Shown here in pieces: positions 164-36,421 of a DNA stretch of 64,000 nucleotides. The notes under the pieces were generated by a model. It saw only the letters and a program-made list of their open reading frames with translations. It ran no database searches and was not told the origin of the DNA. This DNA is from an uncultured Desulfobacterales bacterium. Its GTDB lineage: Bacteria; Desulfobacterota; Desulfobacteria; Desulfobacterales; C00003060. The translations under genes were made by a program, and so were the position numbers. Every line of letters starts with the position of its first letter. Positions within the stretch are counted from its first letter, which is position 1. The stretch spans positions 5,557-69,556 of the forward strand of contig CAZCWQ010000002.1 of NCBI GenBank assembly GCA_964502365.1, given 5' to 3'.

Positions 164-1071
164 AGGTAGGCCTGAGGATTGACGCGGATACCTTCAGGGG
201 AACGAAGTATGGCGTGCCGAACCTCATGAAACTCCTCTCCGGCCACGCAATTTCAGTATCGTTCTTCTTCTCTGTGGGGCCAGACAACATGGGCAGGCAT
301 CTGTGGCGGCTTGTTCGCCCCTCTTTTCTCGGAAAAATGCTCAGGTCAAAGGCTGCAAGCCTCTACGGATGGGATATCCTTCTGAAAGGCACACTGTGGC
401 CCGGCCCGGTTATCGGCAAAAAGCTGGGGGGTGTAATACGCTCTGCGTCGGAGGCCGGCCACGAGGTGGGGTTGCACGCATGGGATCATCATGCCTGGCA
501 GATCCATATTGATACGATGAGTCGTGGAGCCATCCATAGATGCCTGGACAGAGGCTTCGAGCTGCTAACGAGCATTGTCGGTCGACCGCCTGACTGTTCA
601 GCAGTACCAGGATGGAGATGCAACGATATTACACTCCTGGAAAAGGCCGGATTCCCTTTTAGATACAACAGTGACTGCAGGGGCGAGTGCATATTCTTGC
701 CGTTAGTGGATGGGGAGGTCCTGTCCCAGCCGCAGATTCCCGTGACCGTGCCTACCTATGATGAAGTGATCGGGCGCGGCGGGATATCCAACAGGAATTA
801 TAATGACTATATATTGTCCCTGTTCAAACCGGACAGGCTCAATGTCCTGACCATTCATGCTGAAGTGGAAGGCATGGCATGTCTTGTCATGTTCGAAAGG
901 TTTCTAAAAATGGCACGATCGAGAGGGGTATCCTTAGTTCCACTGGGGACGTTCCTCAAGGAACGAGCGCCTATGGGTCATGCAACGATTATCAAAATGC
1001 CGATTCAAGGCCGCGAAGGATGGGTCTCATGCCAGTCAACAGTGAAAAGACAGGCGGAAATTGATTCATGA
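160..1071 (+). CDS. arnD: 4-deoxy-4-formamido-L-arabinose-phosphoundecaprenol deformylase (polysaccharide deacetylase family)
   Basis: 303 aa, MKVGLRIDADTFRG...FFFSVGPDNMGRHLWR...HAWDH. This is the typical ArnD/NodB-fold pattern. The stop overlaps the arnT start by 4 nt. Confidence 0.8.
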   Translation: MKVGLRIDADTFRGTKYGVPNLMKLLSGHAISVSFFFSVGPDNMGRHLWRLVRPSFLGKMLRSKAASLYGWDILLKGTLWPGPVIGKKLGGVIRSASEAGHEVGLHAWDHHAWQIHIDTMSRGAIHRCLDRGFELLTSIVGRPPDCSAVPGWRCNDITLLEKAGFPFRYNSDCRGECIFLPLVDGEVLSQPQIPVTVPTYDEVIGRGGISNRNYNDYILSLFKPDRLNVLTIHAEVEGMACLVMFERFLKMARSRGVSLVPLGTFLKERAPMGHATIIKMPIQGREGWVSCQSTVKRQAEIDS

Positions 1072-2711
1072 AAAAGCCTTCTATTGCAGTCATGGGCCTC
1101 TTCCTTCTGGTCTATATCGTGCCCCTTGGTGTGCGGCCCATGTTTATCCCAGATGAGCCCCGTTACGCGGAGATTCCGCGGGAGATGATCGCCTCCGGTG
1201 ATTGGGTAGTTCCTTATCTGAACGGTCTGAGGTATTTCGAAAAGCCCGTGGCGGGTTACTGGATAAACGCAGGGTCGATAATGGTTTTTGGTGAAAATGC
1301 GTTTGCCGTGCGATTCCCCTCAGCCCTGGCGACTGGGATCTCGGCGTTGATACTATTTTTTCTAGTGACAAGATTTGCAGGCGGGCGTTTGGCCGGGGTT
1401 CTCACTGCCGCGGTCTTTCTGACCTGCGTGGAAGTATTTGTAATCGGCACAACCGGTATCTTAGACAGCCTGCTTTCCCTGTTCATAACTGCGGCCATGG
1501 TGTCATTCTTTTTTGCCCACATGGAAGAGAGGCCGATAAAGAAGACCGGTCTCCTTGCATTGTCCGGGATTTTTTGCGCCCTGGCATTCCTCACAAAGGG
1601 GTTCCTTGGCTTTGCGATACCACTGGTTGCCATCATTCCGTTCCTGATCTGGGAACGCCGGTGGAAAGAACTTGTAAAGGTCTGCCTGGCTATGGTTATT
1701 TCAGCTGGCCTGGTCTGCCTGCCGTGGGCCGTCATGATCTACACCCGGGAACACGATTTCTGGGATTTTTTTGTCTGGAATGAACATATAAGACGATTCG
1801 TGGCTGACAGCGCGCAGCACAAAGAACCGTTCTGGTATTTCTTCCTGCTCCTTCCGGGAGCCGCTCTGCCATGGACTTTTCTCTTTCCTGCGGCAATCTC
1901 GGGTATGAAGCAGTCGGATTTTAAAAACCCCTTCATCCGTTTTGCGGTTTGCTGGTTTCTTTTCCCGTTTCTGTTCTTTTCGGTCTCCAATGGAAAGCTG
2001 CTCACATACATCCTGCCATGCTTTCCACCGCTTGCGGTTCTCATAACAATAGGGCTTCGCAGTTACTTGGAAAGAGGCAAAACAAGGGCGTTCACGGTCG
2101 GCGCCTTGCTATTTGCCCTGGTGACCGCCCTTCTCACAGTCTCATTACTGGTGGTTCAGACAGCGGATTTTCATGGATTGAAGCCGTATGCCCAAACCTG
2201 GAAATGGGCTCTCGCCATGGCCGGATTCCTGTCGTGGTCGTTGTTCCTGTTGTTTTCCATCAGGCAATCAGAGCACCAAAAAAAGATAATGCTGTACAGT
2301 GCCGCTCCGGTACTCTTGATGTTTATCGCCCACTTTATAATGCCGGACCCGACTATGGATCATAAGGCGCCGGGAGAGTTTCTGCTTCGTCATTCCAATA
2401 GAATTCGGCCGGATACCATTCTTGTTTCAGAAGATGACCCGGTGCGAGCCGTTTGCTGGTTCTACAGGCGAAGCGACGTCTATCTCCTTGGACAAGCAGG
2501 CGAGTTGTCTTATGGACTCCATTTTGAAGACTCGAAGGATCGCCTGCTGAACCCGGAGCAATTTGAGGAGCTAGTCCTTAAGAATCGCGGAACAGGACGC
2601 GTTACGCTGATTGCCAGAGCAAGGAGCTACAAAAAGTGGAAGCAAGATTTTCCTGAACCACTGTTTGAGGACAGCAGCGGTAACGGCGGCTTTGTGTTTG
2701 TGCAGTTTTAG
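1068..2711 (+). CDS. arnT: Undecaprenyl-phosphate 4-amino-4-deoxy-L-arabinose transferase (GT39/GT83-like)
   Basis: 547 aa polytopic membrane protein. The N-terminal PDEPRYAEIPREM motif and the multi-TM layout are typical of ArnT/PMT-type glycosyltransferases. It is translationally coupled to arnD. Confidence 0.8.
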   Translation: MKKPSIAVMGLFLLVYIVPLGVRPMFIPDEPRYAEIPREMIASGDWVVPYLNGLRYFEKPVAGYWINAGSIMVFGENAFAVRFPSALATGISALILFFLVTRFAGGRLAGVLTAAVFLTCVEVFVIGTTGILDSLLSLFITAAMVSFFFAHMEERPIKKTGLLALSGIFCALAFLTKGFLGFAIPLVAIIPFLIWERRWKELVKVCLAMVISAGLVCLPWAVMIYTREHDFWDFFVWNEHIRRFVADSAQHKEPFWYFFLLLPGAALPWTFLFPAAISGMKQSDFKNPFIRFAVCWFLFPFLFFSVSNGKLLTYILPCFPPLAVLITIGLRSYLERGKTRAFTVGALLFALVTALLTVSLLVVQTADFHGLKPYAQTWKWALAMAGFLSWSLFLLFSIRQSEHQKKIMLYSAAPVLLMFIAHFIMPDPTMDHKAPGEFLLRHSNRIRPDTILVSEDDPVRAVCWFYRRSDVYLLGQAGELSYGLHFEDSKDRLLNPEQFEELVLKNRGTGRVTLIARARSYKKWKQDFPEPLFEDSSGNGGFVFVQF

Positions 2712-2779
2712 AATGATATCCAGCAGGAAAAAAAGAAATTATATGGAACTATTTGTTGACCTTAGACAAAGAGGTAAAA

Positions 2780-4492
2780 ATGAATTTTTCAATAAAAGTG
2801 GACCCGAAAACCTGGCAAAAATACATGGCTGTTCGCCACAAGGGCCGGGCCCTTCTCACCGATCCCTTTACAAACAAGGGCTCGGCTTTTACCAACCGTG
2901 AGAGAGAGGAGCTCGACATCCTTGGGCTGTTGCCACCTCACATCTCAACTATGGAGGAACAACTGGAGCGAAGCTACGGAAATTTTAGGGCCCTACCAAA
3001 CGATCTTGAGAAGTTTTGCTTTTTGGAAAGCCTCCACGACAGAAACGAAACACTCTTCTACCGGCAGTTGCACGAGCACATGGACGAGATGATACCGATC
3101 GTATACACTCCCACCGTAGGGGAAGTATGCCAAAAATTCTCACACATCTATCGGCGTGCAAGGGGCCTCTATATAAGTTGCGATCACATAAACAACATAG
3201 AGAGGATCTTTGGTAACTTCTATACCAAGAACCCCTCCGTGATCGTCGTAACCGACGGCGAGCGCATCCTTGGACTTGGTGATCAGGGAGCTGGCGGGAT
3301 AGGAATCCCAATTGGAAAGCTCTGCCTTTACACGCTTGGGGCCGGTGTTTCTCCATACAGTACACTGCCAATCATGCTGGACGTAGGCACCGACAATGAA
3401 GATCGGCACAAAGACCCCCTGTACCTCGGTCTCCGGCAGAGGCGGATCCGGGGTAAAGAATACCAAGCATTCATCGATAAATTCGTGGATGCCGTTTGCA
3501 AGGTCTTTCCGAATACTCTGCTTCAGTGGGAGGACTTCCAGAGAGACAACGCGATAAGGCAGCTGAATCGGTTCAAGGAAAAATTATGTACCTTCAACGA
3601 TGACATACAGGGAACTGGAAGCGCAACCCTCGCATTCATATGCAGAGTACTAACTATTACAGGTCAGCCAATCCGAGACAACCGTATCCTTCTTGCCGGA
3701 GCAGGTGCAGCAGCATACGGGATTGCCAACCTCATTGTATCGGCCCTGCATGAAGAAGGATTATCGCTTGAAGAGGCGCGAAAGCATATCTGGATGGTCG
3801 ACAGCAAGGGACTTGTGACCAAGGCGCGCTCGGGGTTAGAGGAATTCAAGGCCGGCTATGCTAGGGAACTTGATGACATAGCCACGTACGAATGCAAGAA
3901 CCGTTCAAGGATAAGTTTGGAAGAAGCGATCACAAACGCCAGACCAACCATTCTCATTGGCACAACAGCGACTCCGGGGCTATTCAACGAAACCGTGGTG
4001 AGACTTATGGCCGAGATCAATGAGCGTCCCGTTATTCTCCCACTATCTAATCCCACGTCTAAAAGCGAGTGCAAGCCGGAGGAGGCCATCAAATGGTCCC
4101 AGGGCAGGGCGATCGTGGCCACTGGAAGCCCGTTCCCCCCAGTGGAGTACAACGGGCGAAATTATAAGATTGGCCAGTGCAACAACTTTTTCATCTTTCC
4201 TGGCATCGGGCTCGGTGTGACGGTTGGCAGTATCAGGCGTATAACCGACAAAATGTTCCTAGCCGCGGCTAAAGCGCTCTCAGAGAAGATCACCGACGGT
4301 AACTCCGAGCAGTTCGCTGTCTTTCCCGAACTCCGGCGAATTCGAGAATGCTCCCACGCTGTAGCCTGCGCCGTAATCAGATGCGCCGTGTCCGAAGGTC
4401 ACGCAGATGAGGAGGTTCTTATAAAATTGGAGGAGACTGTCCGGGACGCCATGTGGTTCCCGGAATACTTGCCTATGCGCTATGAAAGATGA
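2780..4492 (+). CDS. maeA: NAD-dependent malic enzyme
   Basis: Full-length match to the malic enzyme pattern (FTNKGSAF...VYTPTVG...VVTDGERILGLGDQG...GAGAAAYGIA). ATG 2780 is preceded by GAGGT. The ORF track starts at an upstream TTG (2753). Confidence 0.9.
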   Translation: MNFSIKVDPKTWQKYMAVRHKGRALLTDPFTNKGSAFTNREREELDILGLLPPHISTMEEQLERSYGNFRALPNDLEKFCFLESLHDRNETLFYRQLHEHMDEMIPIVYTPTVGEVCQKFSHIYRRARGLYISCDHINNIERIFGNFYTKNPSVIVVTDGERILGLGDQGAGGIGIPIGKLCLYTLGAGVSPYSTLPIMLDVGTDNEDRHKDPLYLGLRQRRIRGKEYQAFIDKFVDAVCKVFPNTLLQWEDFQRDNAIRQLNRFKEKLCTFNDDIQGTGSATLAFICRVLTITGQPIRDNRILLAGAGAAAYGIANLIVSALHEEGLSLEEARKHIWMVDSKGLVTKARSGLEEFKAGYARELDDIATYECKNRSRISLEEAITNARPTILIGTTATPGLFNETVVRLMAEINERPVILPLSNPTSKSECKPEEAIKWSQGRAIVATGSPFPPVEYNGRNYKIGQCNNFFIFPGIGLGVTVGSIRRITDKMFLAAAKALSEKITDGNSEQFAVFPELRRIRECSHAVACAVIRCAVSEGHADEEVLIKLEETVRDAMWFPEYLPMRYER

Positions 4493-4576
4493 GAGAAAGT
4501 GATACGAATCTAGAAAGTGTGTCGGGCGTTACAACGGCAATTATGGCCTGTGGTGTGCCATCCTAGAGAAAGGAGA

Positions 4577-6109
4577 ATGATCGTGCAGAAGCCGATCGAT
4601 AACTCACATCACTTGTTAGCCGACTGGAGTGCTAAAAAAGTCTTCTCGCTGGGGATAGCCTCGATGCTTCTGTCAGTGTGTTTACTGATTGCATGTACCC
4701 AGCAGGATGAAGGGACAAAGAAACCGGCCGGCGAGTTCGCATCACCAAAACCGACTCGTGTAGAGGCGGAGGAGAACCCGAAAACGCCGGCAGTCTTCAG
4801 CACGGCCATTGAGCGCGTAGCGGAGCAAACGATCCCTGCTGTTGTACACATCGAGGTGACTGAACGTGAAGAGGTGTTAAACCCCTTAACGCCTTTTGAA
4901 AATGATCCCTTTTTCCGGCACTTTTTTGGCATTCCCCAGTTGCCTCGAAAATTCAAACGTGAATTAAAAGGTCTTGGAACCGGAATGATCATGGACATTG
5001 AAGGCCACATCCTCACCAATAACCACGTGGCTGGAGGTGCGACCAAGATAGAGGTGCTACTTGCCAGTGGGAAAAGATACCCCGCCAAACTAATAGGCGC
5101 AGATCCCAAGACCGATCTGGCAGTGATAAAAATATCAGCAGAGAAATCACTGCCCCATGTTAGCTTCGGCGACTCGGACAAGGTAAATGTCGGTGCGTGG
5201 GTGGTGGCCATCGGCCATCCCAGAGGCTTGGATCAAACCGTCACCCAGGGGATCATCAGCGCCAAGCACAGGACCGGAATCATGGACCCAAGCAGTTACC
5301 AGGATTTTCTTCAAACAGACGCCGCCATCAATCCCGGCAACAGCGGTGGGCCCTTGCTGAACCTTCAAGGGGAGGTTATCGGAGTTAACGCCGCCATCGT
5401 GTCCCAATCCGGTGGGTTTGAAGGGATCGGGTTTGCCATTCCAAGTAATATGGCCCGTCATGTTGCCCAAGTGCTGATTGCTCATGGCAAGGTGGAACGG
5501 GGCTGGCTCGGTGTCACCATTCAGGATCTCACCCCCAAGCTGGCTATCGCTTTTGACGTGGAAACCACAAAGGGGGCATTGATTGCCGAGGTAGTCAAAG
5601 GCGGGCCGGCAGAGAAGGCGGGTATGAAAAGCGGCGATATTGTGATTGCTTATGCTGGCAAGTCTATCGAAAACAGTAGCAGCCTCCGGAATGAGGTGGC
5701 CCTCACTCCCATAGGCCGTGAGGTAAGTGTGACCCTCCTGCGCCATGGGAAGCAGATAGAACTTACGGTTAGGATCGGCAACCTGCAAGATGCGACAAAG
5801 ATGCTCTCCGTCTCGATTAAGCAACGGTTGGGCGGACAGGTGCGGTCTGTGACATCTAAAGAGACGGAAGAGTACGGTTTGAATCGTCAGCAAGGGGTCG
5901 TCATCGTTTCAGTTGATCCAAAGGGGCCCCTCTGGCAAGTCGGTTTTGAGGTGGGAGATATTATCCTGGAAATCAACGGCAAGACTATTGAGGACGCGGA
6001 AAGTCTTGCCGATGTCCTGAGAACTATACAACCACGCCAACGAATAGCCGTGCTTGCACTGGATCACCGCAGCGGCAATACGGGCTACGTTGAGGTGGTG
6101 GTTCAATAA
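4577..6109 (+). CDS. Periplasmic serine endoprotease DegP/HtrA family (trypsin domain plus 2 PDZ domains)
   Basis: Catalytic motifs HILTNNHV, DLAVIK and GNSGGPL are present, followed by two PDZ-like segments. ATG 4577 is preceded by AAAGGAGA, and there is an N-terminal membrane anchor. Confidence 0.9.
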   Translation: MIVQKPIDNSHHLLADWSAKKVFSLGIASMLLSVCLLIACTQQDEGTKKPAGEFASPKPTRVEAEENPKTPAVFSTAIERVAEQTIPAVVHIEVTEREEVLNPLTPFENDPFFRHFFGIPQLPRKFKRELKGLGTGMIMDIEGHILTNNHVAGGATKIEVLLASGKRYPAKLIGADPKTDLAVIKISAEKSLPHVSFGDSDKVNVGAWVVAIGHPRGLDQTVTQGIISAKHRTGIMDPSSYQDFLQTDAAINPGNSGGPLLNLQGEVIGVNAAIVSQSGGFEGIGFAIPSNMARHVAQVLIAHGKVERGWLGVTIQDLTPKLAIAFDVETTKGALIAEVVKGGPAEKAGMKSGDIVIAYAGKSIENSSSLRNEVALTPIGREVSVTLLRHGKQIELTVRIGNLQDATKMLSVSIKQRLGGQVRSVTSKETEEYGLNRQQGVVIVSVDPKGPLWQVGFEVGDIILEINGKTIEDAESLADVLRTIQPRQRIAVLALDHRSGNTGYVEVVVQ

Positions 6110-6175
6110 GAAGACACACGAAATCCCAAGGCTTTACGTGCTCCCTATATATAGAACGGTCTGAGGTGGCCCATA

Positions 6176-8731
6176 GTGAGACGAAGAGTTTTTCATAGTC
6201 TGACTCCGCTATTCGGGCTCCTCCTCTTTTGTGCAGCCCTCTGGATCCTGCATCACGAACTCAAAGCATATCATTTTCATGACATTATGCGTGATTTGCG
6301 TGGGTTGCCCACGCATCGCCTTTTTCTTGCTCTTGCACTCACTTTCATGAGCTACCTGGTAATGACCGGATACGACGCCCTGGCCTTGCGTTACATCCAT
6401 CATCCCCTCTCATACGGAAAAACCGCTCTGGCCTCCTTTATCGGTTATGCCTTCAGCAATAATATCGGGCTCTCAATGATTGCCGGTGCGTCTGTTCGCT
6501 ACTGTCTGTACTCGGCTTGGGGGCTTTCGGCCTTTGAGATCACCAAGGTGGTCGCTTTCTGCGGCCTGACCCTCTGGTTTGGGTTTTTTACCCTCGGGGG
6601 CCTGACATTTCTCATTGAGCCGATGGCTATTCCCGCAGTGCTTCACCTCCCTTTTGCCTCTGCCCGTCCGCTTGGCATGCTTCTCTTCGCGCTGGTGGCG
6701 GCTTATCTTTTGTGGAGCGTCTTGAGGAAGAGACCGTTGACGATTCGGGAATGGGAGTTTCCTTTGCCCTCCGCCGGCCTCTTTCTCATACAAATGGCAC
6801 TCGCTTCTGTGGATTGGATCTTGGCCGCCAGCGTGCTCTACGCTTTGATGCCCGCTGTGCCAAACATGTCCTATCCGGGATTTCTTTGCGTTTATATGCT
6901 GGCCCAATTGGCCGGGCTACTGAGCCAGGTCCCTGGGGGCCTGGGCATCTTTGAGACGGTGGTCCTCTTGCTCTTGTCTCCCATGTTGCCTGCCTCTGAG
7001 ATCCTTGGAGTCCTTTTGGCTTACCGGGGCATGTACTACCTTCTACCCCTTGGCGTGGCCGTGGCCCTGCTTGGAATCCAGGAGGTCCTGCAAAAGAAAG
7101 ACAAAGTCCAGCGTTTCACCCGAATCTTTGGTCAATGGGTCTCAGGTGTGGTGCCGCCCATCCTGAGCTTTACAATTCTTGTGGGCGGCGCACTTCTCCT
7201 CTTCTCTGGGTCCACGCCGGCGGTGAGCCGGCGGCTGATGTGGCTGAAAGACTTCATGCCCCTGTCGGTTCTCGAAATCTCGCATTTTCTCGGAAGCTTG
7301 GCCGGTACGGGTCTTCTGCTTTTGGCGTGGGGCTTAAAACGCAGGCTCGACGCGGCCTACGTCTTTACTATAGCCCTTCTTGCCTGTGGGGCACTATTTT
7401 CCTTGCTCAAGGGATTGGATTATGAGGAGGCCTTTGCCCTGTTGGTTATGCTCAGCGCATTGCTTCCCTGTCGCCATCATTTCTACAGGAAGGCCTCACT
7501 TTTTAGCCAGCGTTTCGATCCAGGCTGGATCGTCCTTGTCACTATTGTGCTCGCGTGCTCGGTCTGGCTGGGAATGTTTTCGTACAAACACGTGGAATAC
7601 TCTCATAATCTCTGGTGGCGTTTTGCTTTCTCCGGCAATGCCCCGCGGTTTTTGCGTAGCATTGTCGGTGCGACAGGGGTCATCCTATTTTTCGGCCTGG
7701 CAAAACTTCTAAGCCCTGCCGCGCCAAAGGTAACTCGAACACGGGAGGAGGATTTGGATAAGGTCCTTGGGATTGTCAAAACATCTCGCAAGGTCTATGC
7801 AAACCTTGCTCTCCTCGGCGACAAGGCATTCCTTTTTAGCAAAAATGGTAGCGCCTTCATCATGTATGGCGTTGAAGGCCGGAGCTGGGTGGCAATGGGG
7901 GACCCCATCGGCCGGGAGGAAGAATGGGCTGAGCTTGCCTGGCATTTTAGGGAGATATGCGACCGCTACGATGGGTGGCCTGTATTCTACGAGGTAGGAA
8001 CGGAAAAACTTCATCTGTACCTGGATCTAGGGTTTACCTCACTAAAGCTGGGGGAGGAGGCTAGCATCCCGCTGGAAAGATTCTCCTTAGAGGGGGGCGC
8101 TCGAAAGGGGCTGCGGTATACCGCCAACAAACTCGAAAAGGGAAGATATATTTTTGAGGTGATTCCTCTGGAAAAGATCCCTGCCTTCCTGCCAGAATTT
8201 AGAAGTATTTCAGATTCCTGGCTGGAGCATAAAGCCACCAGAGAGAAGCGATTCTCTCTGGGATTCTTTGACGCGGAGTATTTGAAACAGTTCCCAGCAT
8301 GTATTGTACGAAAGGATCATAAGGTCATTGCCTTCGCCAATATCTGGTCAGGTGCAGAGAAGGAAGAACTGTCTATCGACCTCATGCGGTACCTCCCCGA
8401 GGCGCCTCGTGACGTGATGGAGTATCTTTTCATTAAGCTTATGCTTTGGGGCAAGCGAGAGGGATATCGGCGGTTCAATCTCGGCATGGCGCCCCTTTCA
8501 GGCATTGAAGACCATGCCCTTGCCCCGCTCTGGAATCGCCTTGGGACATTTATCTTCCGTCATGGGGAACATTTTTATAACCTCAAGGGTCTCCGGCAAT
8601 ATAAGGAAAAGTTTGATCCTGAGTGGGTGGCGAAGTATCTTGCCTCGCCGGGCGGTCTTGTGTTGCCGCGCATTCTGGCTAACATCGCTTCACTGATATC
8701 CGGAGGCGTAAAAGGGGTCATCGCGAAATGA
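6176..8731 (+). CDS. mprF: Bifunctional lysylphosphatidylglycerol flippase/synthetase MprF
   Basis: 851 aa with a long N-terminal multi-TM flippase region and a C-terminal aminoacyl-PG synthase domain (RFSLGFFD...DLMRY...GYRRFNLGMAPLSG...FKEKFDPEW). Confidence 0.85.
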   Translation: MRRRVFHSLTPLFGLLLFCAALWILHHELKAYHFHDIMRDLRGLPTHRLFLALALTFMSYLVMTGYDALALRYIHHPLSYGKTALASFIGYAFSNNIGLSMIAGASVRYCLYSAWGLSAFEITKVVAFCGLTLWFGFFTLGGLTFLIEPMAIPAVLHLPFASARPLGMLLFALVAAYLLWSVLRKRPLTIREWEFPLPSAGLFLIQMALASVDWILAASVLYALMPAVPNMSYPGFLCVYMLAQLAGLLSQVPGGLGIFETVVLLLLSPMLPASEILGVLLAYRGMYYLLPLGVAVALLGIQEVLQKKDKVQRFTRIFGQWVSGVVPPILSFTILVGGALLLFSGSTPAVSRRLMWLKDFMPLSVLEISHFLGSLAGTGLLLLAWGLKRRLDAAYVFTIALLACGALFSLLKGLDYEEAFALLVMLSALLPCRHHFYRKASLFSQRFDPGWIVLVTIVLACSVWLGMFSYKHVEYSHNLWWRFAFSGNAPRFLRSIVGATGVILFFGLAKLLSPAAPKVTRTREEDLDKVLGIVKTSRKVYANLALLGDKAFLFSKNGSAFIMYGVEGRSWVAMGDPIGREEEWAELAWHFREICDRYDGWPVFYEVGTEKLHLYLDLGFTSLKLGEEASIPLERFSLEGGARKGLRYTANKLEKGRYIFEVIPLEKIPAFLPEFRSISDSWLEHKATREKRFSLGFFDAEYLKQFPACIVRKDHKVIAFANIWSGAEKEELSIDLMRYLPEAPRDVMEYLFIKLMLWGKREGYRRFNLGMAPLSGIEDHALAPLWNRLGTFIFRHGEHFYNLKGLRQYKEKFDPEWVAKYLASPGGLVLPRILANIASLISGGVKGVIAK

Positions 8732-32935: not shown

Positions 32936-34087
32936 ATGATTCTGAAGCGAATATTCAAGGCCCCGAAACAGAGCTTTTTTCTTTTGGGTCCACGCGGATC
33001 TGGCAAGAGTACATGGCTTAGCGTCACCTTTCCCGAGGCACACGTATTCGACTTGCTGTCCGAGGAGACATATCAGAGGCTGCTGGCGAATCCCGGTCTT
33101 TTCGCGGATGAATTGCGCGCCGTTCCTTCGGGCCACTGGGTAATCGTGGACGAGGTGCAGCGACTGCCTGGATTGTTGAACGAGGTGCATCGGTTCATAG
33201 AGGGCAAGCGGCTGCGTTTTGTCCTGTGCGGTTCCAGTGCCCGCAAGCTCAAGCGTGCCGGCGTTAACCTGTTAGCCGGACGCGCCCTGCACAGGTCAAT
33301 GCACGCTTTCGTGCCCGAGGAGCTTGGCGAAAAATTCGATTTGGAAGAGGCCTTGCGGTATGGCTCGCTGCCCATTGTCTGGGATTCGACTGCCAAACAG
33401 GAGACGCTTTCCGCCTACGCCCGGCTCTATCTGAAAGAGGAAATCCAGGCCGAGGCACTCGTACGGAATCTGTCCGGTTTTGCCCGTTTTCTGCCTATAG
33501 CGGCCCTTTTTCACGGCCAAACCGTCAATGCGACCAATATTGCCCGGGAGGCAGGGGTGGCGAGAACGACGGTAACGGGGTATCTTGATGTCCTCGAGGA
33601 AACACTCCTGTGCTTTCGGCTTCCTGCCTACGAAGCAAAGCTGCGGGTGAGGGAACGGAAACTGCCCAAATGGTACTGGTGCGATTCGGGCATTGTGCGC
33701 GCCATGAAGCAGACCACCGGCACTTTGGCACCGGAGGAAAAGGGAGCATTGTTTGAGGGAATGGTAGCGCAGTTGTTGCGGGCTTATAAGGATTACCGCG
33801 GCATCTGTGACGATATGTATTACTGGGCACCTTCCGGCCGATCCCAGACAGAAGTGGATTTCATTCTGGTCCGAGGTACGGACCTGATCGCGGTCGAGGC
33901 AAAATCTGGAAATACGTTTACGGACGCTTGGTGCAAGGGTCTGCGCGCCGTGGCGCAACTCAAAGGTCTACAACGCCGGATTATCGTATACCCTCACGGA
34001 CCAGCAATGAGAACCAAGGACGGCATCGATGTCTTGCCTTTTCAGGAGCTTGCTGACCAGTTGGCCGGTAATGCTTTGTGGAATTAA
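32936..34087 (+). CDS. AAA+ ATPase with C-terminal DUF4143-like domain
   Basis: It has Walker A (GPRGSGKST), Walker B (WVIVDEVQ) and a C-terminal region typical of the AAA_14/DUF4143 family (YYWAPSGRSQTEVDFIL...AVEAKSG). Confidence 0.8.
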   Translation: MILKRIFKAPKQSFFLLGPRGSGKSTWLSVTFPEAHVFDLLSEETYQRLLANPGLFADELRAVPSGHWVIVDEVQRLPGLLNEVHRFIEGKRLRFVLCGSSARKLKRAGVNLLAGRALHRSMHAFVPEELGEKFDLEEALRYGSLPIVWDSTAKQETLSAYARLYLKEEIQAEALVRNLSGFARFLPIAALFHGQTVNATNIAREAGVARTTVTGYLDVLEETLLCFRLPAYEAKLRVRERKLPKWYWCDSGIVRAMKQTTGTLAPEEKGALFEGMVAQLLRAYKDYRGICDDMYYWAPSGRSQTEVDFILVRGTDLIAVEAKSGNTFTDAWCKGLRAVAQLKGLQRRIIVYPHGPAMRTKDGIDVLPFQELADQLAGNALWN

Positions 34088-34246
34088 CAGTAGTGGAGTC
34101 GGCGTTACATTAGGCTGGGAACTGGGGAACTATGGCGTAGCGGGCAAACTGGACTGCACAACCCAGGATTTAAGCCAACCTTTCTTGCCGACGAAACGTT
34201 ATCAGGCCCGAAAAGGTCTTCTGTGAACAATTTGGAGGAGATTGAA

Positions 34247-34381
34247 ATGACCAGACTCGGCAAGCTGCCGGTGCAATACAAAGCCGGCCTGCGCCATTGG
34301 GCTTACAGCCCGGAAGGCTGGGGCTTCAAGCTCGCCAAAAAATGCTATTTTATCTCCGTGGGCGTCTTTATTCGTCAGTGA
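34247..34381 (+). CDS. Possible small protein (44 aa), unknown function
   Basis: The ATG is preceded by GGAGGAG with 6-nt spacing. The translation is MTRLGKLPVQYKAGLRHWAYSPEGWGFKLAKKCYFISVGVFIRQ. It is below the ORF-track length cut-off and I recognise no family. Confidence 0.3.
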   Translation: MTRLGKLPVQYKAGLRHWAYSPEGWGFKLAKKCYFISVGVFIRQ

Positions 34382-34455
34382 ACTGCTTGTCTCAGGGCGA
34401 ACCCTATGATCGAAACCATTGAGGTGCGAAACTTGAGTCATATGTTTATGCCCGT

Positions 34456-34543
34456 CCCGCATCTCCGTTATGGCCTTTCAGTTACAGGCCCAAGGAAACA
34501 GCTCAACTATGAGCGAGGGCTGCTGGAGAGGCGGGGGTTTTTT
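34456..34543 (+). terminator. Branched stem-loop ending in a U-tract (complex terminator or small structured RNA)
   Basis: The outer stem pairs CCCGCATCTCC (34456-34466) with GGAGAGGCGGG (34525-34535), 10/11 complementary. It encloses two smaller hairpins (GGCC...GGCC and CAGCTC...GAGC..CTG) and is followed by GG and TTTTTT (34538-34543). Confidence 0.4.
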
Positions 34544-34804
34544 CAAGATTGTGAAGGGTTACGGGGGGGAGGCCATATGCAAATCACAACACTTCGGGAG
34601 AAGTCTTTTCACAGATATGACAAGCATCGATAGCCTGGTGATGTACCTTTTGAATGAGGATCAACAAATGAGACCTATAGTTCCAAGATTCTGATCATCC
34701 GGTTGCAGAATGATGAGATCTATATTCTTTCTGGAATGCGGTGTGATTGCAGCCATCACCAATCTGCGTTTGACCCCACTAGCTTGCGATACCTTAGGCA
34801 TTTA

Positions 34805-35455
34805 TCAACAGCCGTCGATAATTGGAGAAAAGTAATTCTCGCATTCGATTTCAACGATGGTAACCTCCACTTCCTCATACTTCAAGTCCTCATATTGTAG
34901 GGTTGGATCCCATTTTGTGACCTCTACATCACTATCATGCCTGAAGGGGTTAAGAATCGGACACGAGGTAAACCTAGCAAAACTAAGTTCGAAATTTGTC
35001 AATTCGACTGAAGGAATAGCAAAGGCACTTCGATAATGGATTCTAGTATGATCAAGGTTTAGAATATAATCCCTTAGCTGGGCCACGACCTGCATCCACC
35101 CATAGACCCGTCTTTCATCGGAGGAGCTTCGGTCCCGTGGATCTATACCAAGAACATGCGATATCAACGATCTGTATCCAGACATGTTGTGATATCTTTG
35201 CTTCTTGTTGGGCGCCTTTCTTGTATTCCAGTTCCACCAATTGTAACGGGCATTTCTTGATTCACTGAGGGATTTCTGTTCCATCAGAAGGTAATCTCTG
35301 TCTGATGTAATCTTTCTCCATACTCCGTCCCCTTGGAATCTCATGTAGTCATTGAAGTATGGGACTCTCTTATCCTGCAGCTGAACATATGTGGGCAAAT
35401 GTTCTTTCATGTAACTCTCCACTGCTGCCTCCAAGTTATCAGCGCTAATTGGCAC
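34805..35455 (-). CDS. Hypothetical protein (216 aa), no recognisable family
   Basis: Long ORF in a low-GC segment, 43 nt downstream of the 141-aa ORF on the same strand. The translation is Trp/Asn-rich (NARYNWWNWNTRKAPNKKQRY), with no TM segment or signal peptide. Confidence 0.6.
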   Translation of the reverse strand: MPISADNLEAAVESYMKEHLPTYVQLQDKRVPYFNDYMRFQGDGVWRKITSDRDYLLMEQKSLSESRNARYNWWNWNTRKAPNKKQRYHNMSGYRSLISHVLGIDPRDRSSSDERRVYGWMQVVAQLRDYILNLDHTRIHYRSAFAIPSVELTNFELSFARFTSCPILNPFRHDSDVEVTKWDPTLQYEDLKYEEVEVTIVEIECENYFSPIIDGC

Positions 35456-35498
35456 GACTCATCCCTCCCTCTGCAGATTGTGCACCGGTTCAGACTTG

Positions 35499-35924
35499 TC
35501 ACCTTTTCTCAAAGTACAGCTTCCCCCTCAACGAACGCCTGTTGCCAATAACGAACTCCACAAACCGAGTCTGCTCACTGTTAGTCATGTCTAAGAAGTC
35601 CTGTGTCTGCACTTCAACCATGCAGGTATCCGGATTCCACCACCCTCCCCAGACTTGTGATCGCTTCACGTCAATTCCAAGGTCGGAAGACAAGTCTTCA
35701 AGATTCCGCCTCTTCGACATGTGGAACAGCAGTACCGGCTTGCCATATTCAACTCCTTTACCCCCATAGACAACATAGAATACTGCCTGCCCACGTCCTA
35801 ATCCCGGCATCTTCACAGTATAATGAGCCACATTCTCACGCTGAGGATTATAATTAATGATCACTTCTTCCCCCAACGCCTCCATAATTTCTGCAACTCT
35901 ATCTCTTGCTTCTTCCGCACTCAT
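35499..35924 (-). CDS. Hypothetical protein (141 aa), no recognisable family
   Basis: The ATG is preceded by a strong SD (GGAAAGGAGGTGAAGAAGT-ATG). The composition looks like a soluble protein, but I recognise no motif. Confidence 0.65.
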   Translation of the reverse strand: MSAEEARDRVAEIMEALGEEVIINYNPQRENVAHYTVKMPGLGRGQAVFYVVYGGKGVEYGKPVLLFHMSKRRNLEDLSSDLGIDVKRSQVWGGWWNPDTCMVEVQTQDFLDMTNSEQTRFVEFVIGNRRSLRGKLYFEKR

Positions 35925-36116
35925 ACTTCTTCACCTCCTTTCCTAGGCAGACCGAAGTCATGATCAGCTTGCCATGATCGAGGTTTAGCCCCACGAGATT
36001 CCCGTCAAAGATATCGTACCAGTCTCGCGACTGGAACGCGGACATCAGGATCATAGACCTCAAACTAAAATTGAAACAGGCAACAGGGGTAATGCGAGTA
36101 CATCTCTCTTGCCAAC

Positions 36117-36206
36117 ATTATACAGCCTTACCCGTTGATTTCACCACAGATATCTAACCATCCCTCTGTCTCAGGCTACAGATGCACAAGTCAGATATCC
36201 ATCTGA
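36117..36206 (-). promoter_or_regulatory. Putative promoter and operator region of the orphan cassette
   Basis: On the minus strand there is a TATAAT box (36122-36117). Upstream of it lie two related palindromes, AGATATCT (36148-36155) and TCAGAT-ATCC-ATCTGA (36191-36206), which share CAGATATC. Confidence 0.35.
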
Positions 36207-36421
36207 TACCTCGACTGACGTAGGTGTAAAAGCGAACTTCAGTTCGAGGTTCTTTCATTCGGGGTACAGCATACGTGGTTCCAGGAAACTCTGTGGATGG
36301 CGCATCCCAGCTGGGACTTTCTTTCACCGCAGCTTCACGTCTGGCCTCCAGCCTATACCAGAATATTCCCAGTCAGCCAACAAGGTCATGCAAAGGCCCA
36401 CCCACAATGTGCCGGTGGTTG

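Follow-up and report, generated by a model that had tools for sequence, protein, structure and literature searches.

A rare nuclease-like gene and an adjoining orphan gene set between two genus-specific repeats in an uncultured Desulfobacterales bacterium

Background

Nucleases of the PD-(D/E)xK (restriction-endonuclease-like) kind are classically recognized by the pattern D-x(12-15)-[hydrophobic]-E-x-K, which follows an N-terminal helix. Among bacterial regulatory regions, that of the PEP-CTERM genes has a described layout in which a TTTACA-containing motif, a spacer of 32-92 nucleotides (nt), a sigma-54 -24/-12 motif, and a long leader follow one another, and sites of this type occasionally precede other genes (Haft et al. 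2006, PMC1569441). The present analysis concerns a cassette that can be compared with both. It contains two genes, encoding proteins of 141 and 216 amino acids (aa), here called p141 and p216, and runs on the minus strand from 36229 to 34616 of a 64,000-nt stretch of DNA (the window) from an uncultured Desulfobacterales bacterium. The window spans positions 5557-69556 of contig C2 (CAZCWQ010000002.1) in a 3.15-Mb assembly (GCA_964502365.1) of 218 contigs that is 93.5% complete, and its DNA has been matched in sediment metagenomes only.

Given the findings described below, we suggest that the cassette joins a rare accessory gene, nuclease-like in kind, to a partner specific to the lineage, and that a regulon module of the host drives their expression; we put the probability of this reading at roughly 0.45. 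It is probably an accessory pair of the defence-island type that sits in a host expression slot. In this model, p141 and p216 would form one two-gene transcription unit within a variable region downstream of a conserved rnc/radical-SAM operon. The functional core would be p216, an accessory gene that stands alone and whose product acts on nucleic acid; p141 would be a lineage-specific add-on that may interact with it. The unit would not be autonomous. Its expression would depend on an upstream module that is found across the genus and has diverged in this copy, probably through sigma-54; this copy also has a good sigma-70-like -35/-10 pair. The unit would be closed by a genus-wide 3' repeat of 135 nt.

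The p216 Family

Read along the minus strand, the cassette begins with a 5' regulatory module (36093-36229), which is followed by a leader, or 5' untranslated region, of about 170 nt (35925-36092), the p141 open reading frame (ORF; 35499-35924), a 43-nt gap, the p216 ORF (34805-35455), a 52-nt spacer, and the 3' repeat (34616-34752). Both main ORFs are real genes, because each has a strong Shine-Dalgarno (SD) sequence in an operon-like layout and a codon score that is higher in frame than off frame, and because p141 has a predicted fold and p216 has homologs. The SD of p141, AAGGAGGTG, lies within the leader at 35940-35932, 7 nt ahead of the ATG; p216 starts with GTG, 7 nt after GGGAGGG, and this start is supported by an alignment with the homolog P0003 (MGKSAENLAAAV versus MPISADNLEAAV). 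Thus, the two minus-strand ORFs of the initial annotation, which was made from the sequence alone, stand as drawn, including the strong SD of the first. That annotation had recognized no domain in either protein, and searches of Pfam, PHROGs, NCBIfam, and PADLOC likewise return no match to p141 or p216.

Relatives of p216 are few. A word-indexed search retrieves p216 alone, but phmmer against 1.84 billion representative sequences finds seven true relatives, with E values from 6.7e-64 (52% identity) to 6.9e-06; a profile search adds two more, and a scan of JGI metagenomes another four. The family thus comprises 13 homologs at 28-52% identity, or about 14 known sequences of roughly 180-215 aa, all from metagenome assemblies. 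No member turned up in 400 genomes of the phylum or among 185,579 species represented by one genome each (records of the window's own genome possibly excepted), and p216 has no paralog in its own genome. The family is very rare and horizontally scattered, and its proteins are soluble. An eighth hit, the 896-aa protein P0010, which looked like a fusion relative, proved to be a false positive; it is an InlB-repeat protein, with an hhalign probability of 0.2%.

An alignment of 12 members, at 28-51% identity, contains 23 invariant columns, and p216 retains all of them. They include D43, W46, E59, K61, E65, W73-W74, R95, and W120, together with A125-Q-L-R128, Y141, P148, E151, N169, D190, and E202. 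Within this set, D43, E59, and K61 form D-x15-ExK after an N-terminal helix; hydrophobic residues precede the ExK, as in ..LFIEEKT.. and ..LLMEQKS... As a sequence pattern in these 12 proteins, the arrangement agrees with the catalytic motif of the PD-(D/E)xK enzymes, and it suggests that the family carries a restriction-endonuclease-like active site at D43...E59-x-K61. Nuclease chemistry and a role in defence are putative for p216.

Neighborhoods of the p216 Homologs

Most contigs that carry a p216 homolog are shorter than 2 kb, and 12 distinct contexts were compared. In one of the informative arrangements, the locus L059 of the metagenome-assembled genome GCA_049472375.1 (JBLIRQ010000239.1), the order is HU, an AAA_15/21 ATPase that matches PADLOC HEC-04 at 4.5e-47, the p216 homolog, and then hsdM-rhuM-hsdS. 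Here the HEC-04-like ATPase, the p216-family gene, and hsdM-rhuM-hsdS (813-6674) are all on the same strand, and the locus could represent an ATPase-plus-small-nuclease module within a type I restriction-modification (R-M) locus. In L052, a TPR-CHAT gene stops 25 nt before the p216 homolog, which suggests that the two are co-transcribed; the homolog is followed by an EcsC-like gene and, 1.5 kb downstream, by a Uma2 gene that corresponds to PDC-S03 (7.3e-45). The TPR-CHAT gene of this contig (L052, 1-2338) is protease-like. In L062, the p216 homolog lies between an Nmad3 protein and an unannotated 178-aa ORF, after which comes an HNH protein resembling PtuB/PDC-M01B. The 178-aa ORF has no Pfam or PADLOC match, and we take it, from reading its sequence, to be GIY-YIG-like. 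The homologs of L065/L064 adjoin a DDE transposase, and in the window the cassette adjoins a DUF4143 ATPase gene of the PADLOC candidate class PDC-S01.

When the contexts of at least 4 kb are considered, the window included, all four contain R-M, HEC-04, PDC-S03, PDC-S01, HNH, or Nmad3 genes, a very small number to which no background statistic is attached. Within this small sample, the p216 family keeps defence or mobile company, and the accessory, defence-type setting that had been proposed for the cassette may apply to p216, a member of a sparse and patchy family. The other part of that proposal, a conserved pair of the toxin-antitoxin kind, is not supported. The genes upstream of the p216 homologs differ at every locus and none resembles p141, so the pair is not conserved: no p141-like gene is present in any of the 12 contexts, and p141 itself has no homolog, which leaves no co-occurrence of the two across genomes.

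p141, an Orphan Protein

The 141-aa protein is a soluble alpha/beta protein with a predicted isoelectric point (pI) of 6.2. Among 5.8 billion protein clusters, only p141 itself was found; there is no relative in 300 genomes of the order, no protein match in the 8 genomes of the genus that were sampled, and no paralog in its own genome. A single-sequence AlphaFold2 model has nevertheless a mean local confidence (pLDDT) of 77.2 and a predicted template-modeling score (pTM) of 0.72, with helices (H) and strands (E) in the order H-4E-H-2E-2H-E. A confident single-sequence fold is rare for a chance ORF. Foldseek searches with this model gave nothing significant, either against the PDB (best E 0.025, TM score 0.28) or against BFVD (best E 0.0098), and the TM score did not exceed 0.39 over the two databases. 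On the evidence of the ORF, its SD, its codon score, and the model, we take p141 to be a real protein, a singleton with no fold match. It is a lineage-specific and, as modeled, well-folded add-on that stands outside the conserved architecture of the p216 family. Purely by conjecture, its likeliest role would be that of a local modulator or partner of p216.

The Upstream Repeat

The module in front of p141 (36093-36229, minus strand) is one copy of a dispersed repeat, delineated with nhmmer, BLAST, and alignments. At least 8 copies are present in the bacterium's own genome (G000 in the locus labels), that number being clear by nhmmer, and BLAST finds copies in 10 of the 37 genomes of the genus. 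Besides the one in the window, the copies of the own genome lie at G000:C121, C80 (two), C140, C186, C50, and C57. The consensus of the family (alignments A2 and A8) is ..AGATCTTTACAGCC..TTTTGGTTCCCAAA..GGTATGATATC..TGGCAAG-N4-TTGTAC or, in another reading, AGATATCAAACAGAGATCTTTACAGCC ... TTTTGGTTCCCAAA ... GGTATGATATC ... TGGCAAG-N4-TTGTAC. The window copy has palindromes of the AGATATCT type at 36191-36208 and 36148-36155, a TATAAT at 36122-36117, and then the conserved TGGCAAG block, whose TGGCA occupies 36114-36110 and after which comes ATGTAC. TGGCA is nearly invariant in the family, and TTGT or ATGT follows it at the consensus spacing; the C of the -12 element is usually absent, and some copies are degenerate. 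The AGATCTTTACAGCC of the consensus contains TTTACA, a motif lost from the window copy, which reads TCTGACTTGTGC. Of all copies in the genome alignment, that of the window has diverged furthest, with TTTACA gone and ATGT at -12. It is also the copy that has a perfect TATAAT.

It was initially noted that the cassette has its own promoter and operator palindromes. The TATAAT and the two palindromes are indeed present, yet they are not private to the cassette, since they belong to one copy of a multi-copy family. A scan for sigma-70-type promoters identifies GTGAAA-16-TATAAT, which agrees at 10 of 12 positions; promoter-like sites in the region number 4, against 3.3 +/- 2.0 in shuffled sequences, and are thus not in excess. 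The family as a whole resembles the PEP-CTERM sigma-54 site, and this likeness suggests that it is probably an enhancer-dependent sigma-54 promoter of the PEP-CTERM kind. The genome encodes rpoN and about 27 sigma-54 activators. As for the leader, it has no Rfam match; the small ORF called there (51 aa as first drawn, 54 aa at 35899-36063) has no family match and no support of any other kind.

The genes behind other copies of the repeat encode PEP-CTERM proteins (G000:C80 and G009:C172), a small lipoprotein with proline/glutamate-rich repeats, a FadL-like outer-membrane protein, a thioredoxin-like exported protein, a TusA-like protein, and a PAS histidine kinase. At G000:C57, about 0.3-1.6 kb past the repeat, the FadL/OmpP1-like outer-membrane protein is split into ORFs of 267 and 112 aa, which may reflect a frameshift or an assembly error. 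There are three TusA-like paralogs, at G000:C137, C31, and C121. One is behind a 5' repeat and beside a sigma-54 activator gene; the two others precede a copy of the 3' repeat, in one case with a small Cys-rich ORF in between.

The Downstream Repeat and the Paired Arrangement

Just past the p216 stop codon lies a second dispersed repeat, of about 135 nt (34616-34752, minus strand). Its own genome holds 6 copies (the window, G000:C104, C137, C80, C59, and C31), and 13 of the 37 genomes of the genus hold from 1 to 9 each; the 9 copies are those of G009, and at G322:C15 two copies stand in tandem (2022-2129 and 2232-2324). The repeat has a sharp 5' edge at CTGCAATCACACCGCATTCC and two TA(T/A)AGATCTCAT boxes about 44 nt apart, and it falls into two subfamilies distinguished by an insert of 10 nt, with which a CATTCC/GGAATG hairpin arises. 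Every copy points the same way as the gene upstream of it. The genes it follows are PEP-CTERM, TusA-like, lipoprotein, and other unrelated genes, and many copies lie at contig ends.

Several identities were considered for this element. A structured RNA, ribozyme, or terminator is not supported: there is no Rfam match, and RNAalifold on 27 copies yields -1.6 kcal/mol with 0 compensatory pairs and is weak on both strands, so that no conserved RNA structure is indicated. A small protein (AITPHSRK..), or an ORF on the plus strand (MMKSIFFLECGVIA), is rejected, since no start is conserved among the copies, their substitutions lack codon periodicity, and 3 of 11 copies contain stops or frameshifts. 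An IS200/605-type end, an omega-RNA, or an attC site is not supported either, as no copy has an adjacent transposase or TnpB gene and the ends are not complementary. It follows that the 46-aa mini-ORF at 34661-34801, suggested earlier as a possible flanking ORF, is not a gene, because it lies within the repeat; neither it nor the like ORFs in other copies should be called genes in annotation.

The two repeats are specific to the genus and occur together. On the same strand, and 0.6-2.3 kb apart, they surround different payloads at at least 9 loci in 6 genomes (the window, G000:C80, G009:C172, G324:C325, G008:C159, G322:C149, G322:C150, G323:C268, and G323:C204). Because of this pairing around different payloads, the cassette occupies a host-specific "slot" between the repeats. 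AGATCT and GATATC cores are common to the 3' repeat and the 5' module. In addition, a partly palindromic CCCACATnTnGTGG-like motif (also CCCCAACATsTTGT) occurs about 40 nt before 3' repeats, for example at G000:C31 and G009:C172, and a similar motif occurs about 25 nt past the promoter in several 5' copies (G000:C121, C50, C57, and C186). Found at both ends of the payload, this motif is possibly a site for a protein or for recombination.

Composition and Genomic Setting

The cassette had been described as a low-GC patch, an observation that does not survive a comparison with the whole genome. The genome has 49.1% GC and the cassette 45.7%, which is the 12th percentile of 1100-bp genome windows, or about 1.1 standard deviations under the mean. 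When the 1,516 long ORFs of the genome serve as the reference, p141 stands out neither in GC (24th percentile) nor in codon score (32nd percentile), and p216 has ordinary, host-like codon usage (73rd percentile); only the GC of p216 is low, at 43.6% (4th percentile), with GC at third codon positions (GC3) at the 8th percentile. Thus, when computed in this way, the deviation of the cassette, taken in its entirety, is not significant, and neither its GC nor its codon usage marks it as a horizontally acquired island. The contrast seen initially, against a line of "55-58%" GC, is largely due to the GC-rich neighbor: that line belongs to the DUF4143 gene, whose own GC of 55.6% makes it an outlier on the high side (97th percentile of coding GC). 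Consequently, the local GC contrast should not be taken as evidence that the cassette is an island, and it is the DUF4143/AAA_14 ATPase that is more likely to be a recent arrival.

The identification of this neighbor was correct. The gene (32936-34087, plus strand), which is convergent with the cassette, encodes an ATPase with Pfam DUF4143 (1.3e-33) and AAA_14 (3.6e-15) domains, and it matches the PADLOC candidate PDC-S01 over its full length (7.8e-48). No DUF4143 gene is found beside any other p216 homolog, and so nothing ties the ATPase functionally to the cassette. The spacer between this gene and the 3' repeat (34088-34615) lies outside the cassette. It contains a 44-aa ORF (34247-34381, plus strand; MTRLGKLPVQYKAGLRHWAYSPEGWGFKL...) with a strong SD, a GC3 of 0.69, and a codon score at the top of the range of the genome, but no Pfam match, and after it a terminator-like hairpin with a T-run (34520-34534, plus strand). 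The ORF may be a real small gene, or it may be the 5' stump of a lost gene that travels with the ATPase. A search for a remnant gene in 34100-34640 gave no Pfam match up to E=5, in a search whose HMMER filters drop most matches above about 0.1.

On its other side, the cassette is bounded by TPR-rnc-radical SAM genes whose synteny is kept across the genus. What comes after the radical SAM gene varies by genome (in G010 it is an MBL, or metallo-beta-lactamase, hydrolase, in G009 a CBS protein), so that synteny breaks off here and the region is variable, in line with the accessory module that the initial annotation had proposed. At the DNA level, nothing in 18 other genomes of the genus matches the cassette. 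Samples taken in 2021 and 2024 have one and the same cassette sequence. In a third sample of the same study (run X3), at 3-5x depth, no contigs cover 34840-36061 and the flanks are partly covered; the one junction contig of that run lies entirely within the repeat and has a loose end that is similar to another locus, G000:C54.

Alternative Explanations

Several observations weigh against the reading of the cassette as a nuclease-like accessory gene wired to a host regulon. For p216, the single-sequence AlphaFold2 model is unusable (pLDDT 33) and so gives no structural confirmation of a PD-(D/E)xK fold, with its alpha-beta-beta-beta-alpha-beta core, a search of PDB sequences with the p216 profile gives 0 matches, and the protein is acidic (pI 5.7), which is unusual for a DNA enzyme though it does not exclude one. 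Two of the 12 members have weak matches to Pfam FokI_cleav_dom (E 0.019 and 0.07), but these cover the NPxxWWK stretch only, which is noncatalytic, and hhalign of the family against FokI gives a probability of 3%; these matches are accordingly not taken as evidence of homology. The association with defence genes comes from only 4-5 informative neighborhoods. As to the promoter, the -12 element is poorly conserved (ATGT in the window; TTGT, TTAT, and others in the family), and no protein of the genome passes the cutoff for the PrsR equivalog (best TIGR02915 score 439 bits, cutoff 502.6). Finally, the other genes behind the 5' repeat encode envelope or secreted proteins, so that a role within that regulon is possible.

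This last point leads to the explanation that the pair is simply an ordinary member of the 5'-repeat regulon of the host, of the PEP-CTERM/envelope type and probably sigma-54 dependent, with a function in, for example, biofilm, the envelope, or sulfur handling rather than defence. The sharing of the module with PEP-CTERM, lipoprotein, FadL-like, thioredoxin-like exported, and TusA-like genes would be expected if this were so, as would the restriction of both repeats to the genus and the host-like codon usage of p141 and p216. However, neither sequence, when read, has a recognizable signal peptide, lipobox, or PEP-CTERM tail, unlike most of the payloads. The scattered occurrence also argues against it: besides the lack of matching DNA in the 18 genus genomes, p141 has no protein match in 8 of them (p216 was not searched by protein there), and the p216 family is found in unrelated metagenomes beside R-M, nuclease, and transposase genes. 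The loss of TTTACA from the window copy of the module points the same way, and we consider this explanation unlikely. More doubtful still is the model of the initial annotation, in which p141 and p216 would be a dedicated two-component system (toxin-antitoxin, abortive infection, or effector and immunity protein), one neutralizing or controlling the other. The compact, co-directional layout, with its 43-nt gap and an SD for each gene, is what such a system would look like; partners of toxins or effectors are often unrelated between loci, and small unrelated ORFs do lie 25-56 nt upstream of some p216 homologs (62 aa in L050, a 121-aa membrane protein in L060, and the CHAT gene of L052). Against this, p141 has no homolog anywhere searched, neither protein matches a known toxin, antitoxin, or defence model in PADLOC, Pfam, NCBIfam, or PHROGs, and other homologs have no close same-strand upstream gene, the gap being 560 nt in L059 and such a gene being absent from L058. 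Since these members manage alone, the p216 family needs no partner.

In another, more ambitious explanation, which we regard as very unlikely, the 5' and 3' repeats would form a genus-specific expression slot with an interchangeable payload, swapped or captured by recombination in the flanks, and the p216 family would represent a defence nuclease that is new and stands alone. Genes for PEP-CTERM proteins, lipoproteins, and TusA-like proteins would be among those exchanged, as would, in the window, a nuclease-like gene of foreign origin together with its orphan partner; the CCCACATnTnGTGG-like motif or the AGATCT-containing boxes of both repeats would be possible recombination sites. In a cassette system of this sort, neither an integrase nor an attC site would so far be recognizable. 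Least probable of all is that the ORFs are decaying or nonfunctional passengers, the remnants of a past insertion. Such an origin might account for the singleton status of p141, for the divergence of the 5' module, which exceeds that of every other copy in the genome alignment, and for the missing contig coverage in the third sample. Yet both frames are intact and have good SDs, p216 keeps every invariant position of its family, p141 has a confident predicted fold, and the sequence did not change between 2021 and 2024.

If p216 is indeed a nuclease of a new family, one whose members lie beside R-M, HEC-04, Uma2, HNH, and CHAT genes, it provides a testable candidate for a new single-gene function in defence or nucleic-acid targeting.

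Comparison with Known Systems

The p216 family shares with the small stand-alone members of the PD-(D/E)xK superfamily found in defence islands the invariant D...(hydrophobic)ExK after an N-terminal helix, a size of about 200 aa, a scattered distribution, and neighbors of the R-M, HNH, Uma2, and ATPase kinds. It differs from them in being acidic and in having no significant profile, sequence, or fold match to any described family of the superfamily (by Pfam, hhalign, and a PDB profile search), and its invariant blocks SWW, GQR, KW..IAQLR, YR..F.IP..E, and EID.DNYFG have no known counterpart there. The neighboring ATPase is like PDC-S01 over its entire length, but in the window it is convergent, separately transcribed, and of a composition that differs from that of the cassette.

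The 3' repeat recalls both the REP, ERIC, and MITE-like repeats (repetitive extragenic palindromic, enterobacterial repetitive intergenic consensus, and miniature inverted-repeat transposable elements) and the attC sites of integrons: it is a multi-copy element of 135 nt, located just past the stop codons of genes that are unrelated to one another, one of its edges is sharp, and assemblies often break at it. It differs in lacking terminal inverted repeats, a target-site duplication, and a conserved hairpin. In addition, its orientation to the upstream gene is fixed, its copy number is low, its copies are only 74-89% identical to the consensus, it is not arrayed, no integrase is seen, and it lacks an attC-like R''/R' symmetry.

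The closest parallel for the 5' repeat is the cis-regulatory region of the PEP-CTERM genes. In both, a long conserved upstream module is present, and here it comprises the AGATCTTTACAGCC motif, a spacer of about 75 nt, and TGGCAAG-N4-TTGTAC. It is located 170-300 nt ahead of units of one gene each; in two of them that gene encodes a PEP-CTERM protein. A few copies precede genes of other kinds, which was likewise described for the PEP-CTERM region. The differences are that the GC of the -12 element is mostly GT or TA, that the conserved part is much longer (about 135-170 nt) and contains the extra palindromes GATATC and TTTGG-N3-CCAAA, that the genome has no PrsR equivalog above the cutoff, and that TTTACA is missing from the window copy, which has a sigma-70-like TATAAT. 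Furthermore, the repeat is paired with a conserved 3' repeat that was not described by Haft et al. (2006). The 3' element thus extends a PEP-CTERM-type regulatory site by a conserved and previously undescribed part, and the paired repeats illustrate a way for a host regulon to take in a gene that is foreign or an orphan.

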